From Escherichia coli (GTDB lineage Bacteria > Pseudomonadota > Gammaproteobacteria > Enterobacterales > Enterobacteriaceae), in assembly GCF_003790525.1 (NCBI RefSeq), contig NZ_CP033635.1: a stretch of 64,000 bases of DNA, one strand, 5' to 3'. The notes beneath the pieces are model-generated. The model did no database searches, was not told where the DNA came from, and was given only the letters and a program-made list of their open reading frames with translations. Of this stretch, positions 1-10,790 are shown in pieces (within the stretch, counting starts at the first letter, position 1; every line of letters begins with the position of its first letter). The translations under genes were made by a program, and so were the position numbers.

Positions 1-45
1 TTTACCTTTAGCGATATCAGCGGTAGTAATCGGTGTAGAGGTCAT
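1..45 (-). CDS. 5' end of an unidentified gene that continues beyond the window edge (N-terminus MTSTPITTADIAKGK)
   Basis: Reverse complement of 1..60 gives GAGGAA Shine-Dalgarno followed by ATG ACC TCT ACA CCG ATT ACT ACC GCT GAT ATC GCT AAA GGT AAA; divergent from the AraC-family gene; product not recognised. Confidence 0.4.
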   Translation of the reverse strand, partial: MTSTPITTADIAKGK

Positions 46-270
46 AGATATTCCTCGTGAATAGGGAGCAATTTTTAGTTTTATTGCAATGACATGATTA
101 ATTCTGCCGTGAACGGGAATATCAACAAGGCGAGAAAAGAGTAAAAAAAGGTGACGATTCCGACCTGAATTTAAAAGTGTGAATTGGATCAGGTGAAATT
201 AATGTTTTTGATTAATAATCAAAAGGTAATGTGTTTAATCATTAATGAATAAGCGGAAAATTACATATCA

Positions 271-1086
271 ATGCTCGAATTATCCATGACGTTACCGATT
301 AAAGTGCAAAATGGTGGATTATTTATTTCCCGTGGCGTAGGGAGGCATCCGGCAAGGCGGCTGGAGTCATGGGAAATTATCTTTGTCGAAAAAGGTCGAT
401 TAGCGATTCAGGAAGAAGAGCGGATATTTCTGGTCGATGCGGGAGAGAGTTTATTACTCTGGCCGAACCGACAGCATGTTGGGGTAGAGGATTTTCCCGC
501 CGATCTCAAATTTTACTGGCTGCATTTTGAGGTTAAAGCGCCGGATAGCGACCCGCGCTGGCTCACTCATCTTAGCGTGCCGCAACAAACTAAGGTTGCC
601 GATCCGCAGGTGCTGGTGGCCTTGTTTCGCCAGTTCTTAAGCGAACAGGAAAAGCATCAACGCACTCCGGCGCTGGAGTTTATTGTGCTGCTGATTTTGC
701 AGCAGCTCACCCGTGACGCGCGTCTTGATGAACAGGCCGATGGTGCAGGCACCACCCTTGCCTGGAAAGCGCAGAAACTGATTCGCACGCAATATCACCG
801 CCCGCTTTCCACGGCGCTTTTAGCCCGCGAGCTGTACTGCAATGCCGATTATCTTGGGCGCGTCTATCGGCGGGTGTTTCATCTGACGTTAACAGAAGCA
901 ATCCACCGCCAGCGAGTGCGCGAAGCCGAAAAGCTGTTAATTAGCGAAGCGCGATCGCTCACGGAAGTGGCGGCGTTGTGCGGGTTTAATGACGTCGGCT
1001 ATTTCCGGCAGATTTTTCGCAAGCACACCGGTTTAACGCCAGCAGCGTGGAAGCGGCGTTACAGCAAGGAACATATCAATTCGTAG
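271..1086 (+). CDS. AraC/XylS-family transcriptional regulator (N-terminal cupin-like sensing domain, C-terminal HTH)
   Basis: 271 aa ORF; C-terminal region with typical AraC HTH signature (…YLGRVYRRVFHLTLTEAIHRQRVREAEKLL…GFNDVGYFRQIFRKHTG); not recognised as a named K-12 gene at this position. Confidence 0.8.
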   Translation: MLELSMTLPIKVQNGGLFISRGVGRHPARRLESWEIIFVEKGRLAIQEEERIFLVDAGESLLLWPNRQHVGVEDFPADLKFYWLHFEVKAPDSDPRWLTHLSVPQQTKVADPQVLVALFRQFLSEQEKHQRTPALEFIVLLILQQLTRDARLDEQADGAGTTLAWKAQKLIRTQYHRPLSTALLARELYCNADYLGRVYRRVFHLTLTEAIHRQRVREAEKLLISEARSLTEVAALCGFNDVGYFRQIFRKHTGLTPAAWKRRYSKEHINS

Positions 1087-1117
1087 TGCCGGGGCGATGA
1101 AGCCCCGGTCTGAGAGA

Positions 1118-1813
1118 TTACTGCCCGTAATAGGCATTGGCCCCATGTTTACGCAGGTAGTGCTTATCCAGCAGTTCGTTTTGCATCGCAGGGAGCAGCG
1201 GTGCAAGCTGGCGCGAGAACAGGCCCATATAGGCGCACTCTTCCAGCACCACGGCGTTATGCACCGCATCGGCGGCGTTTTTTCCCCAGGCGAACGGGCC
1301 GTGAGAATGCACCAGTACAGCCGGGATTTGTGCCGGGTTCAACCCACGTTCTTCGAAGGTTTTAATGATCACTTCGCCGGTCTGGTATTCATACTCGCCG
1401 TTGATCTCCTCTGCGGTCATCTGTCGCGTGCAGGGGATGGCACCATAGAAGTAATCAGCGTGCGTGGTGCCCCAGGCGGGGAGATCCAGCCCGGCCTGCG
1501 ACCAGATGGTGGCGTGGCGCGAGTGGGTATGCACAATACCGCCAATTTCGGCATAGCGACGGTAAAGCGCCAGATGCGTTGGCGTGTCGGACGAGGGCTT
1601 TTTGCTGCCTTCCACCACTTTACCGCTGGCTATCTCAACCACCACCATATCGTCGGCGGTCATCACGTCGTACTCGACGCCGGAAGGTTTGATTACCATC
1701 CATTGCCGCGTTTCGTCTACCGCGCTGACATTGCCCCAGGTGAACGTCACCAGATGGTGAGCGGGAAGCGCCAGATTCGCCGCCAGCACGTCGGCTTTTA
1801 GTTGCTCTAACAT
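1118..1813 (-). CDS. sgbE: L-ribulose-5-phosphate 4-epimerase (class II aldolase family)
   Basis: 231 aa ORF, class II aldolase/epimerase; last gene of the yia-sgb operon by context. Confidence 0.9.
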
Positions 1814-2667
1814 ATAAATCCGGCCTCCTGCATACGCGCTTCAATCCAGCGCCGCGCCTGAATAATCTCCAGCACCGGCTCTTTGGCTTTTTCGGTCCAC
1901 ATCTCAATCAGAAATGATCCGCGATAGTTCAGTTCATGCAGCGTTTTGAAGATGCCAACGAAATCGACGCAGCCTTCGCCAAACGGCACATCACGGAACT
2001 GTCCGGGGCTTTGCTCGGTCACTGGCTGGGTGTCTTTCAGGTGGATCGCGGCGATACGGTCAATGCCCAGTTTCAGTTCGGCGGGAACATCATTGCCCCA
2101 GGCGCTGAGGTTGCCGACGTCCGGGTAGACGGTGAACCACGGCGAGGCGAGCATCTCGTCCCATTTTTTCCATTTGCTGATGGAGTTCATAAACGCGGTA
2201 TCCATAATCTCCACCGCCAGCATTACTTGTGATGCCGCCGCCTGTTCGACTGCCCACGCCAGCCCTTCAGCAAAACGTTGTTGGGTGCCTTCGTCGTGGT
2301 CTTCGTAATAGACGTCATAACCTGCCAGCTGGATGGTGCGAATGCCGAGATCGCGCGCCAGGCGAATCGCTTTACTCATGATTTCCCGCGCCCGTTCGCG
2401 CACTGCCTCGTCCCGGCTGCCAAAGGGAAAACGACGATGGGCAGACAGGCACATTGACGGAATGGCAACACCCGTTTCGATCATCGCAGTGACCAGCGAA
2501 GCACGTTGTGCGGCGCTCCAGTCAAGACGTGAGAGCCGTTCGTCGGTTTCATCCACCGACATTTCGACAAAATCAAAGCCACAGCTTTTTGCCAGCACCA
2601 GCCGCTCCGGCCAGGAGAGATCTTTCGCCAGCGCTTTTTCATAAATCCCTAACGGATGATTACGCAC
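1807..2667 (-). CDS. sgbU: L-xylulose-5-phosphate 3-epimerase
   Basis: ORF track 1807..2757; likely GTG start at 2667 giving 286 aa beginning (V)[14 protein letters not shown]; overlaps the sgbH stop. Confidence 0.85.
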
Positions 2668-9366: not shown

Positions 9367-10215
9367 ATGGGGAAAGAAGTGATGGGAAAAAAAGAGAACG
9401 AGATGGCGCAGGAAAAAGAGCGTCCAGCCGGAAGCCAGAGTCTGTTTCGTGGGTTGATGCTGATTGAGATTTTGAGCAACTATCCAAACGGTTGTCCGTT
9501 GGCGCATCTTTCGGAACTGGCTGGTTTAAATAAGAGTACCGTCCATCGCTTATTGCAGGGATTACAGTCCTGCGGCTATGTGACCACCGCGCCCGCCGCA
9601 GGGAGTTACCGCCTGACCACCAAATTTATTGCCGTCGGGCAGAAGGCGCTGTCTTCGCTGAATATCATTCATATCGCCGCTCCGCATCTTGAGGCATTGA
9701 ACATCGCCACTGGTGAAACCATTAACTTCTCCAGCCGCGAAGACGATCACGCTATTTTGATTTATAAGCTGGAACCCACAACCGGGATGCTGCGAACCCG
9801 TGCCTATATAGGCCAGCATATGCCGCTCTACTGTTCCGCAATGGGCAAGATCTACATGGCGTTTGGTCACCCGGACTACGTGAAGTCATACTGGGAAAGC
9901 CATCAGCATGAGATCCAGCCGTTAACCCGCAATACCATTACCGAGCTGCCCGCGATGTTCGACGAACTGGCGCACATTCGTGAAAGCGGAGCGGCGATGG
10001 ACAGAGAAGAAAACGAACTCGGCGTCTCCTGTATTGCTGTTCCGGTGTTTGATATTCATGGGCGGGTGCCGTACGCCGTGTCGATTTCGCTTTCGACATC
10101 ACGTCTGAAACAGGTGGGGGAGAAAAATCTCCTGAAACCACTGCGTGAAACCGCGCAGGCTATTTCTAATGAACTGGGATTTACTGTCAGGGACGACCAG
10201 GGCGCGATCACATAA
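9367..10215 (+). CDS. yiaJ: IclR-family transcriptional repressor of the yiaK-sgbE operon
   Basis: 282 aa IclR-type (N-terminal HTH, C-terminal effector domain); divergent from yiaK. Confidence 0.9.
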   Translation: MGKEVMGKKENEMAQEKERPAGSQSLFRGLMLIEILSNYPNGCPLAHLSELAGLNKSTVHRLLQGLQSCGYVTTAPAAGSYRLTTKFIAVGQKALSSLNIIHIAAPHLEALNIATGETINFSSREDDHAILIYKLEPTTGMLRTRAYIGQHMPLYCSAMGKIYMAFGHPDYVKSYWESHQHEIQPLTRNTITELPAMFDELAHIRESGAAMDREENELGVSCIAVPVFDIHGRVPYAVSISLSTSRLKQVGEKNLLKPLRETAQAISNELGFTVRDDQGAIT

Positions 10216-10316
10216 CGCTTTGGACAAGTGCCAAAACTTTAACATTTCCTTCGTTGGATCAAAGCAGTAGAGACGCGCTCTCTGGCACTCTGCTGTTTTA
10301 GTGCAAAGGAGTGATC

Positions 10317-10790
10317 ATGAACCGGTTTATTATTGCGGATGCGACGAAATGTATCGGTTGCCGTACCTGTGAAGTGGCTTGCGCAGTGTCGCATCAGGAG
10401 AATCAGGATTGCGCTGCGTTGTCACCAGACGAGTTTATTTCCCGTATTCGTGTCATTAAAGACCACAGCTGGACCACGGCAGTAGCCTGTCATCAGTGTG
10501 AAGATGCACCGTGCGCGAATGTCTGCCCTGTTGACGCGATAAGCCGTGAACATGGGCATATTTTCGTTGAACAATCACGTTGCATTGGCTGTAAAAGCTG
10601 TATGCTGGCTTGCCCGTTTGGTGCGATGGAGGTCGTTTCTTCGCGCAAAAAGGCGAGGGCGATTAAGTGCGATCTGTGCTGGCATCGGGCGACGGGACCG
10701 GCCTGTGTTGAAGCCTGCCCGACAAAGGCGTTGCAGTGCATGGATGTCGAGAAAGTGCAGCGGCATCGGCTACGACAGCAGTCTGTTTGA
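10317..10790 (+). CDS. ysaA: 4Fe-4S ferredoxin-type protein
   Basis: ATG at 10317 gives 157 aa; multiple CxxCxxCxxxCP motifs. Confidence 0.88.
   Translation: MNRFIIADATKCIGCRTCEVACAVSHQENQDCAALSPDEFISRIRVIKDHSWTTAVACHQCEDAPCANVCPVDAISREHGHIFVEQSRCIGCKSCMLACPFGAMEVVSSRKKARAIKCDLCWHRATGPACVEACPTKALQCMDVEKVQRHRLRQQSV

Follow-up and report, generated by a model that had tools for sequence, protein, structure and literature searches.

MelR of Escherichia coli is an AraC-family activator, and the melAB operon, which encodes an alpha-galactosidase and a GPH symporter, is co-dependent on CRP. The GH127 gene of Geobacillus stearothermophilus presumably forms part of a large cluster for arabinan utilisation. 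In Bifidobacterium longum, an importer and the intracellular enzyme HypBA1 serve the use of beta-Ara2 (PMC7263609). Here, we examine the left edge of a 64-kb stretch of DNA (hereafter the window), which is 100% identical to Escherichia coli SMS-3-5, whose RefSeq annotation was used for the genes lying outside it. According to our analysis, to which we assign a probability of roughly 0.7, positions 1..1117 are the right end of an ancestral Enterobacteriaceae unit for beta-L-arabinofuranosides, which is regulated by its own AraC-type protein and was deleted in K-12.

In SMS-3-5 the annotated order is yiaT, GH127, MFS, AraC-family regulator, sgbE, and three of these genes form a module in which a two-gene operon, encoding a GPH symporter and a GH127 glycosidase, is divergent from the gene of an AraC/XylS regulator. 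The original prediction had pointed out that the left edge of the window departs from the K-12 gene order, and all the sequence features which it described there were found where it placed them. The divergent gene with its start at 45, which leaves the window, is now recognised as that of an annotated 466-aa MFS transporter. Its first 15 codons occupy 1..45 on the minus strand, where the reverse strand 45..1 translates as MTSTPITTADIAKGK, and the whole gene, the portion to the left of the window included, is annotated at L001 12645..14045. The gene encoding the 656-aa GH127 protein (L001 10664..12634, RefSeq annotation) is separated from the symporter gene by 10 nt, its Shine-Dalgarno sequence AAGGAG overlaps the stop codon of the transporter gene, and it is followed by yiaT. 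The view of the regulator gene as the edge of a small catabolic module is therefore correct, with the body of the module (GPH symporter, GH127, then yiaT) lying outside the window.

On the other side, sgbE (1118..1813, minus strand; ORF and RefSeq annotation) encodes L-ribulose-5-phosphate 4-epimerase and is the final gene of the yiaK-sgbE operon. It is convergent with the regulator gene, the two stop codons being at 1118..1120 and 1084..1086, respectively, and is a neighbour which stands outside the module. From sgbE on, the proposed colinearity with K-12 holds in a comparison by annotation over the first ~15 kb of the window, and the statement that yiaT adjoins sgbE in K-12 is true when intact genes only are counted. 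Since the regulator gene directly adjoins sgbE here and in 28 other loci, and since both gene sets belong to pentose-related metabolism, the regulator might be thought to control the yiaK-sgbE (L-xylulose / 2,3-diketo-L-gulonate) operon instead of the symporter-GH127 operon. We deem this very unlikely, because the regulator gene converges on sgbE from the distal 3' end of that operon, which according to the annotation already has its own IclR-type regulator, YiaJ. Moreover, of the 73 loci from other genera, 39 have no sgbE close to the module, and in these the regulator is still paired with MFS-GH127; likewise, 427 O157-type genomes keep the regulator gene at the junction despite the deletion of yiaK-sgbE. 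The regulator, symporter and GH127 trio was present in 73 of the 79 orthologous loci, and the regulator was tightly divergent from MFS-GH127 in 72 of the 79, across about 25 genera; the regulator probably activates the divergent symporter-GH127 operon. In other genera the neighbours of the module, identified by eye from sequence and without a family search, resemble aldB, yiaY, selA/selB, a ROK kinase, an OmpA-like protein and DbpA. No glycosidase gene was apparent among them, so the module looks self-contained.

The 271-aa AraC/XylS regulator reported at 271..1086 on the plus strand is supported by its ORF, by Pfam and NCBIfam profiles, by the RefSeq annotation and by orthologues, which share 62-93% identity over the 79 loci. 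It consists of an N-terminal AraC-type cupin sensor domain (PF02311 AraC_binding, 33.8 bits against a cut-off of 21.1, residues 26-132) and a C-terminal double helix-turn-helix (PF12833 HTH_18, 69.8 bits against 33.6, residues 184-263; PF00165 HTH_AraC, 40.9 bits against 26.6). It thus combines the two-HTH DNA-binding domain of the AraC/XylS family with the AraC-type cupin ligand-binding/dimerisation domain of the sugar-responsive subgroup. The start codon at 271 is backed by the N-terminus MLELS, which is kept in the orthologues, and since residue 6 of the orthologues is mostly Ile, the Met further along is not conserved as another possible start. The best NCBIfam match of the regulator is the AraC model NF007860, but its score of 60.1 bits is far under the equivalog cut-off of 208 and the identity to K-12 AraC is 23% over the full length, so the regulator was rejected as AraC itself.

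The symporter matches the TIGR00792 gph model with 334.1 bits (cut-off 231.35; residues 25-462) and PF13347 (MFS_2) with 248.7 bits, which also exceeds the cut-off, and it belongs to the glycoside-pentoside-hexuronide (GPH):cation symporter family over its 12-helix length. The top NCBIfam matches are the YagG subfamily (357.5 bits against a cut-off of 610) and the PRK11462 GPH model (326.3 against 836), and since both scores are under the curated cut-offs the protein was assigned to neither subfamily. The MelB equivalog (209.9 against 456) and the glucuronide transporter equivalog (195.1 against 528) were rejected as well.

In the GH127 protein, all three domains exceed their cut-offs (PF07944, 374.3 bits; PF20736, 85.7 bits; PF20737, 88.8 bits). 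The closest solved structure is Geobacillus 4QJY, with 55% identity over 628 aligned residues (E = 1.8e-235), and HypBA1 was matched with E = 4e-153. The five residues E322, E338, C340, C417 and C418 of HypBA1, which comprise the cysteine nucleophile, the acid/base Glu and the Zn ligands (PMC10728902), align with E318, E334, C336, C414 and C415 of the module enzyme, all five being kept, and C412 aligns with the HypBA1-specific C415. By eye, the N-terminus (MNISEVDLHKL...) bears no resemblance to a signal peptide. On these grounds we infer that the protein is a cytoplasmic beta-L-arabinofuranosidase. One alternative accepts the module as ancestral but supposes that its substrate is another furanoside or plant glycoside, the specificity of GH127 differing from that of HypBA1. 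The GH127 family does include an aceric-acid hydrolase and 3,6-anhydro-D-galactosidases (PMC5698469), a Salmonella GH127-family gene, likened to this one by family alone, was reported to be lactulose-induced (PMC13304739), and GPH transporters handle many different glycosides. However, the strongest matches, 4QJY and HypBA1, are both described as beta-L-arabinofuranosidases, all catalytic residues are kept together with the equivalent of the HypBA1-specific cysteine, and the aceric-acid-hydrolase model scores less than half its cut-off (NF049879, 457.4 bits against 950, the better of two matching stretches covering residues 252-649), which led us to reject that activity and to regard a different substrate as improbable. 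Salmonella STM0148 was rejected as an orthologue, since it is an unrelated GH43 alpha-enzyme.

The divergent control region at 46..270, described as AT-rich in the original prediction, has indeed a G+C content of 31.6%, whereas that of the regulator gene is 52.9% and that of the whole window 51.1%. We aligned 75 distinct orthologous intergenic regions from about 25 genera and counted the spacings between conserved elements. In this footprint, a core corresponding to 97..222 is kept at fixed spacing across genera, while both leader regions differ in length and sequence. The cross-genus footprint is a ready map of the control region for tests. At the operon side of the core, the conserved blocks ATT.ATT.TGC and CAACAAGG, whose starts are 28 nt apart in all 46 sequences having both patterns, outline a predicted operon promoter at 97..128 on the minus strand. 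Two candidates fit there, one with a -10 element CAGAAT (106->101) and a -35 element TTGTTG (128->123) separated by a 16-nt spacer, the other with ATTAAT (102->97) and TTGATA (125->120) and a 17-nt spacer, and the operon transcription start is predicted near 90..94. Conservation is the sole basis of the proposed promoters. A generic sigma-70 scan of 1..1300 returned no strong promoter; at the operon promoter, a weak match is as expected if the promoter is activator-dependent.

Abutting the predicted -35, at about -37 to -76, lies a conserved box of 40 bp (131..170; consensus A...AAAAGTATAAAAAG.TGACGATTCCGACCTGAT, at least 90% column conservation in the 75 sequences), within which the distance from ACAAG to ATTCCGAC is 32 in 73 of 73 sequences. 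We propose that this box is the binding site of the AraC-type regulator. A repeat finder detected no AraC-type direct half-site repeats in 131..170. Local alignment with the K-12 control region between araC and araBAD led us to reject a resemblance of the box to araI1/araI2: the best score, 21, was attained by 16 of the 300 shuffled sequences, and the match lay elsewhere than on araI.

Further along, a CRP-like site AAAG-TGTGA-ATTGGA-TCAGG (175..193, centre 185.5) is indicated by its match to the consensus and by conservation. The CRP-like half-site pair noted earlier, TGTGAATTGGATCAGG, is present at 178..193, but taken alone it does not rise above chance (28 such matches against 24.8 expected in the window); it has two mismatches to TGTGA-N6-TCACA. 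Across genera, conservation reaches at least 90% in AAA.TGTGA and in GATC, and 68 of 73 sequences have TGTGA at 21 nt after ATTCCGAC. Relative to the predicted transcription starts, the centre of the site lies at about -91 for the operon and at about -41.5 for the regulator gene, whose start is predicted near 226..227 on the plus strand. The element AAA.TGTGA....GATC could instead be part of an operator, be it for the AraC-type regulator or for some other factor, in which case catabolite control would be absent or indirect. This is suggested by the single good half-site, the right half retaining only TC, and by the frequency of matches with two mismatches, of which chance alone would give about one per 2.3 kb. 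Nevertheless, the conserved AAA-TGTGA-N4-GA-TC coincides with the most informative positions of the CRP consensus, and the distances to the two predicted starts resemble those of class II promoters and of the araBAD arrangement, so we consider such an operator the less probable interpretation, if a serious one, and retain that of a putative CRP site.

Toward the regulator gene, a repeat finder and conservation revealed the perfect palindrome TTTTGATTA-A-TAATCAAAA at 206..224 on the plus strand, which contains the predicted -10 of the regulator gene, AATAAT, at 214..219. Most genera keep the motif TTAATAATCAA, which follows TGTGA at a distance of 36 nt in 53 sequences and precedes the ATG of the regulator gene by 55-58 nt; the Buttiauxella/Cedecea/Atlantibacter group lacks it. 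In 1..1400, a permissive Rfam search gave only three sub-threshold chance matches and no RNA family.

Between the regulator and sgbE stops, the hairpin placed earlier at 1089..1108 is real and extends over 1088..1109 (GCCGGGGC-GAUGAA-GCCCCGGU), with a G+C-rich 8-bp stem and a 6-nt loop. The segment 1080..1125 folds at -22.7 kcal/mol (z = -4.1). The hairpin is specific to Escherichia and identical in K-12. It was rejected as an intrinsic (Rho-independent) terminator, since no T-run is present on either strand and a terminator scan gave no call. The deletion junction of O157:H7 falls in its loop, after 1098.

The module had been regarded as strain-specific, but it is carried by 2313 of 5426 complete E. 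coli genomes (about 43%), and four configurations of the locus occur within the species. The module is retained in SMS-3-5, O157:H7 and ST131-type genomes, and deleted in K-12, W, E24377A and CFT073. A deletion scar is shared by K-12 and 2460 others, 2461 of the 5426 genomes in all (about 45%). In the 427 O157-type genomes of the same set the module is kept and yiaK-sgbE is deleted, with the regulator gene next to the junction and annotated as intact in the O157 record examined. In further strains, the module was lost together with yiaTUVW. What remains in K-12 are ysaC, corresponding to the final 34 codons of the regulator, and ysaD, corresponding to about 63 codons of GH127, which align to the module at 90-95% identity. 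Accordingly, the presence of the AraC gene at the same place in K-12, which the original prediction had named as its refutation, is found in part: the gene is present at the site, but only as its last 102 bp. In K-12-type genomes, 983..1117 on the plus strand, that is ysaC (b4648, a pseudogene) and the hairpin, is the sole part of the module left beside sgbE. The mapped K-12 breakpoints define two deletions, one of about 210 bp and one of about 4021 bp, which would have removed the unit from K-12 and about 45% of E. coli, leaving ysaC and ysaD. In the literature searched, the only experimental role that we found reported for ysaC/ysaD was that of a neutral site for insertions.

The lack of intact genes between sgbE and yiaT in K-12, and the absence or fragmentary state of the module in 57% of the complete E. 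coli genomes, could also be explained by a strain-specific catabolic island inserted between these two genes in SMS-3-5. We find this hardly credible and reject horizontal acquisition. Pieces of two of the three module genes sit at exactly the same site in K-12, and the order yiaU-yiaT-GH127-MFS-regulator-sgbE-sgbU is also that of Citrobacter, Enterobacter, Lelliottia, Huaxiibacter and Pseudocitrobacter, so that the inserted segment proposed earlier is contradicted by the same context in other genera and by the K-12 fragments. The G+C content of the module (53-57%) is like that of its flanks, no composition-based sign of horizontal transfer was detected, and the SMS-3-5 annotation shows no mobility genes, integrase, IS or tRNA features at the module. 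Finally, the sampled scar genomes have the same match extents among the matches listed, which fits one inherited deletion. Taken together, the K-12 fragments, the shared gene context, the flank-like G+C and the lack of mobility genes indicate a loss in K-12 and not a gain here, and the window departs from the K-12 order because K-12 lost the unit by deletion. The module is therefore an ordinary gene-loss polymorphism, not an insertion, made of parts of known kinds, and the locus provides a clear illustration of reductive evolution acting repeatedly on a single site. A difference from K-12 need not be an acquisition; here, K-12 is the derived, deleted state.

As for the function of the ancestral unit, the symporter would import a small beta-L-arabinofuranosyl glycoside, most likely beta-1,2-arabinobiose or a comparable breakdown product of the hydroxyproline-rich glycoproteins or pectin of plants, freed by other microbes. 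GH127 would hydrolyse it via its zinc-bound cysteine nucleophile to L-arabinose, which would enter the AraBAD pathway. The cupin domain of the regulator may sense the glycoside or its product, the regulator would activate the operon from the conserved 40-bp box beside a weak -35, and the putative CRP site common to both promoters may impose catabolite control. E. coli is not known to have an extracellular enzyme which releases beta-arabino-oligosaccharides, so it would rely on other organisms for making use of the module. In the literature searched there was no experimental characterisation of the module or its GH127 in E. coli or any enterobacterium, and the EDL933 transcriptome supplements searched for expression data contained no usable entries. 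More tentatively, and at somewhat less than even odds, the unit represents an undescribed enterobacterial scavenging of beta-L-arabinofuranosyl oligosaccharides with an AraC-type sensor and CRP, whose presence or loss is niche-relevant between lineages, the beta-Ara2 possibly being freed from plant extensins by bifidobacteria or Bacteroides. If so, it might account for the report that GH127 co-segregates with invasive IBD isolates (PMC11879602). The supply of L-arabinose was recently tied to the gut fitness of Salmonella and EHEC (PMC10016319, PMC11127945), and judging from its genes the module is a plausible route to L-arabinose from beta-linked plant arabinosides for many E. coli, O157:H7 included, and for other enterobacteria.

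Compared with the described systems, the module enzyme is closest to the GH127 of Geobacillus stearothermophilus (4QJY/4QK0; 55% identity), but the latter belongs to a Gram-positive thermophile whereas the former is part of a minimal three-gene unit. With the HypBA1 system the module shares a three-domain GH127 with zinc and catalytic residues kept and, plausibly, the import of an oligosaccharide followed by its intracellular cleavage. Unlike that system, its importer is a GPH symporter instead of an ABC transporter, its regulator is AraC-type, and GH121 (HypBA2) and GH43 (HypAA) accompany it in none of the surveyed loci. The K-12 pairs yicJ-yicI and yagG-yagH likewise couple a symporter, there of the GPH pentoside type, with an intracellular glycosidase, although the partner in the module is a GH127 and not a xylosidase and the symporter falls under both subfamily cut-offs. 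The resemblance to araC/araBAD extends to the cupin and double HTH of the regulator, to divergent promoters with a CRP-like site between them and to the conserved box abutting the -35 at about -37 to -76, the place of araI in araBAD, and the expected product, L-arabinose, would feed AraBAD. However, the regulator is 23% identical to AraC, the similarity of the box to the ara control region is at chance, and there is no sign of a distal O2-type looping site in the module. As regards melR/melAB, the operon order is reversed, the transporter coming first in the module, the glycosidase families are unrelated (GH127 versus GH4), and the module proteins are under the cut-offs of the MelR (38.6 against 253 bits) and MelB (210 against 456) models. 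Yet the two systems are alike in that an AraC-family regulator is divergent from an operon for a cytoplasmic glycosidase and a GPH symporter, with a CRP-like site in the shared control region here, and MelB is the nearest solved relative of the symporter (structure matches, E = 1.8e-38).

According to our analysis, window positions 1..1117 match the E. coli SMS-3-5 chromosome (NC_010498.1, reverse strand) at 100% identity; the locus examined there, L001, includes a further 14 kb to the left, and L001 14001 equals window position 1. The elements described in the original prediction were recovered, namely the ORF at 271..1086 with its 271-aa product, the N-terminus MTSTPITTADIAKGK on the reverse strand of 45..1, the AT-rich spacer at 46..270 (31.6% G+C), the CRP-like TGTGAATTGGATCAGG at 178..193, and a hairpin between the regulator and sgbE stop codons, which is strong and lies at 1088..1109. 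The 271-aa protein carries AraC_binding and HTH_18/HTH_AraC domains, each exceeding its Pfam cut-off, and is classified on this basis as a two-domain AraC/XylS regulator of the sugar-responsive type; its start at 271 is backed by the N-terminal MLELS conserved among orthologues. It was rejected as AraC itself, scoring 60 bits against an equivalog cut-off of 208 bits and sharing 23% identity with K-12 AraC. The divergent gene leaving the window encodes a 466-aa glycoside-pentoside-hexuronide (GPH):cation symporter (TIGR00792, 334 bits, cut-off 231; PF13347, 249 bits), for which the closest solved structure is the melibiose permease MelB.

A GH127 gene starts 10 nt downstream of the symporter gene, its Shine-Dalgarno sequence overlapping the symporter stop codon, and is followed by yiaT in convergent orientation. 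Its 656-aa product has the full set of three GH127 domains and shares 55% identity with structure 4QJY, a Geobacillus GH127 beta-L-arabinofuranosidase; its alignment with Bifidobacterium longum HypBA1 gave E = 4e-153. Residues E318, E334, C336, C414, and C415 align with HypBA1 E322, E338, C340, C417, and C418, whose roles have been described, C417 being the nucleophile (PMC10728902). The enzyme probably stays in the cytoplasm, given that its N-terminus bears no resemblance to signal peptides. At family level, all three products are ordinary representatives of known groups, the regulator being of the AraC type, the symporter of the GPH family, and the enzyme of GH127.

The proposal that this is the edge of a strain-specific catabolic module, inserted between sgbE and yiaT, holds as far as the module edge is concerned, but K-12 remnants, outgroup loci, and module composition contradict the insertion of a strain-specific island. 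Between sgbE and yiaT, MG1655 keeps two annotated pseudogenes, ysaC (b4648, 102 bp) and ysaD (b4649, 192 bp), which align with the final 34 codons of the regulator gene (window 983..1086) and with codons ~558-621 of the GH127 gene, respectively. Relative to SMS-3-5, K-12 is missing ~210 bp (L001 10562..10771) and 4021 bp (L001 10962..14982). A 9-bp direct repeat, TGCGGCTGG, borders the smaller deletion (L001 10553-10768), which takes out the GH127 3' end together with two REP-like palindromes that separate the stop codons of yiaT and GH127 (L001 ~10587-10665); the junction of the larger deletion has essentially no microhomology. Identity between K-12 and SMS-3-5 is 98.8% on the yiaT side (L001 9663-10561), 94.9% on the sgbE side (window 983-1899), and 90% in the ysaD fragment; this unequal identity across the scar suggests separate histories for each side, by recombination or pseudogene decay.

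When one genome per species was scanned, regulator orthologues (62-93% identity) were found at 79 loci in ~25 genera of Enterobacteriaceae and Erwiniaceae. Regulator, symporter, and GH127 occur together in 73 of the 79, with the tight divergent layout in 72, and the remaining six are mostly cut contigs. The order yiaU-yiaT-GH127-MFS-regulator-sgbE-sgbU-...-lyxK is found in Citrobacter, Enterobacter, Lelliottia, Huaxiibacter, and Pseudocitrobacter, and the regulator-sgbE junction also in Salmonella diarizonae, Klebsiella, Raoultella, Kluyvera, Kosakonia, and Phytobacter. Module G+C (53-57%) is like that of the flanks, and the SMS-3-5 locus annotation contains no mobility genes within the module. 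Because outgroups carry the module at this site, the comparison shows its loss from K-12, not its gain by SMS-3-5. We give the gene identities and this deletion history a probability above 0.95. The K-12 remnants already had gene names; what is useful here is the corrected polarity, the mapping of the locus in four states, and the mapping of its control region by conservation.

These four configurations were found among 5426 complete E. coli genomes, the module being called present at ≥80% of its 4.6 kb. It is present in 2313 genomes (among them SMS-3-5, O157:H7, and ST131), which presumably include the 427 with the O157:H7-type junction. The latter keep the module, with a truncated yiaJ directly after the regulator gene (junction region 10086-10228 of the O157:H7 locus L004) and the whole yiaK-sgbE operon deleted. 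Control of the yiaK-sgbE operon by the regulator is unlikely, since the pairing with MFS-GH127 persists both in these genomes and in 39 loci without sgbE, and YiaJ already serves as that operon's own regulator. The contiguous K-12 scar occurs in 2461 genomes, including K-12, W, E24377A, and O111:H8, and its equal extents among sampled matches fit a single inherited event. Neither module nor scar is present in ~650 genomes, most of which appear to have the configuration of B1172 (L085 5415-7695), where aldB abuts sgbE and yiaW, yiaV, yiaU, yiaT, and the module are missing. CFT073 probably shares it; a search there with the regulator 3' end gave no match. GH127 was previously noted as a CAZy family varying by lineage in E. 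coli (bioRxiv 10.1101/2021.10.19.464957), and its co-segregation with invasive IBD isolates has been reported (PMC11879602). Further variation was seen nearby: a Fic-family protein gene between yiaY and aldB (L001 3749-5044) in SMS-3-5, O157:H7, and B1172, absent from K-12 DH1; a DUF4862-family gene between yiaM and yiaL in B1172 (L085 13561-14481), not in SMS-3-5 or K-12; and an IS421 (IS4-like) element within sgbE of the scar-type H77 (NZ_AP042666.1), where sgbE is annotated as two class II aldolase fragments.

At window 1098/1099, the O157:H7-type junction falls within the hairpin loop. This hairpin (-22.7 kcal/mol, z = -4.1) is identical in K-12 and has a variant form in Escherichia whittamii; Salmonella and Citrobacter are without it, and there the convergent regulator gene and sgbE nearly abut. 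Lacking a T-run, it does not qualify as an intrinsic terminator; it may still stabilise or end both convergent transcripts. In the E. whittamii representative genome, sgbU lies almost directly after the regulator gene and hairpin (L012 8813-8857), and sgbE appears to be deleted.

Alignment of 75 distinct orthologous spacers revealed leaders differing in length and sequence on both sides of a conserved core with rigid spacing. The block ATT.ATT.TGC (~97..108) starts 28 nt before the ACAAG start within CAACAAGG (122..130) in 46/46 sequences, and this ACAAG starts 32 nt ahead of ATTCCGAC in 73/73. On the minus strand, both blocks fit a weak predicted operon promoter, with candidate -35 TTGTTG or TTGATA, -10 CAGAAT or ATTAAT, and a predicted start at ~90..94. 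The conserved 40-bp box A...AAAAGTATAAAAAG.TGACGATTCCGACCTGAT (131..170) lies at about -37 to -76 of that start, where class-typical AraC-family activators bind; a suspected resemblance of this box to araI was rejected by a shuffle test. In AAA.TGTGA....GATC (175..192), TGTGA is 21 nt beyond ATTCCGAC in 68/73 sequences, and TTAATAATCAA (212..222) follows 36 nt beyond TGTGA in 53, with the predicted regulator-gene -10 AATAAT at 214..219. The CRP-like site, centred at 185.5, is ~-91 from the predicted operon start and ~-41.5 from that of the regulator gene. With 28 such matches in the window against 24.8 expected, the site alone is at chance level, and only TC is conserved in its right half; the predicted CRP site is nevertheless credible because precisely the informative CRP positions are conserved. 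A generic scan found no promoter in the control region, as expected if the promoters were activator-dependent. The octamer TGATTAAT is present in both predicted -10 regions (window 95-102, 206-224), and a perfect palindrome, TTTTGATTA-A-TAATCAAAA (206-224), spans the predicted regulator-gene -10. Most genera conserve this palindrome, which may serve some dimeric factor as operator or may mediate autoregulation.

The enzymology of the module points to beta-L-arabinofuranosides. In B. longum, extracellular GH121 frees beta-Ara2 from hydroxyproline-rich glycoproteins, and, after import, HypBA1 cleaves the freed beta-Ara2 inside the cell (PMC7263609). The surveyed enterobacterial loci differ from this system in that inspection of neighbour sequences gave no extracellular partner enzyme; the neighbours resemble aldB, yiaY, selAB, and similar genes. 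For this reason, uptake of glycosides freed by others is deemed the likeliest role: other organisms would release small beta-L-arabinofuranosyl glycosides, the module would take them up and hydrolyse them, and the L-arabinose would go to AraBAD. We regard this substrate class as reasonably probable. GH127 may instead act on another substrate, though this is less probable; the aceric-acid-hydrolase model scores less than half of its cut-off. In its parts list the module equals melR/melAB: a divergent regulator of the AraC type accompanies a symporter of the GPH family and a cytoplasmic glycosidase.
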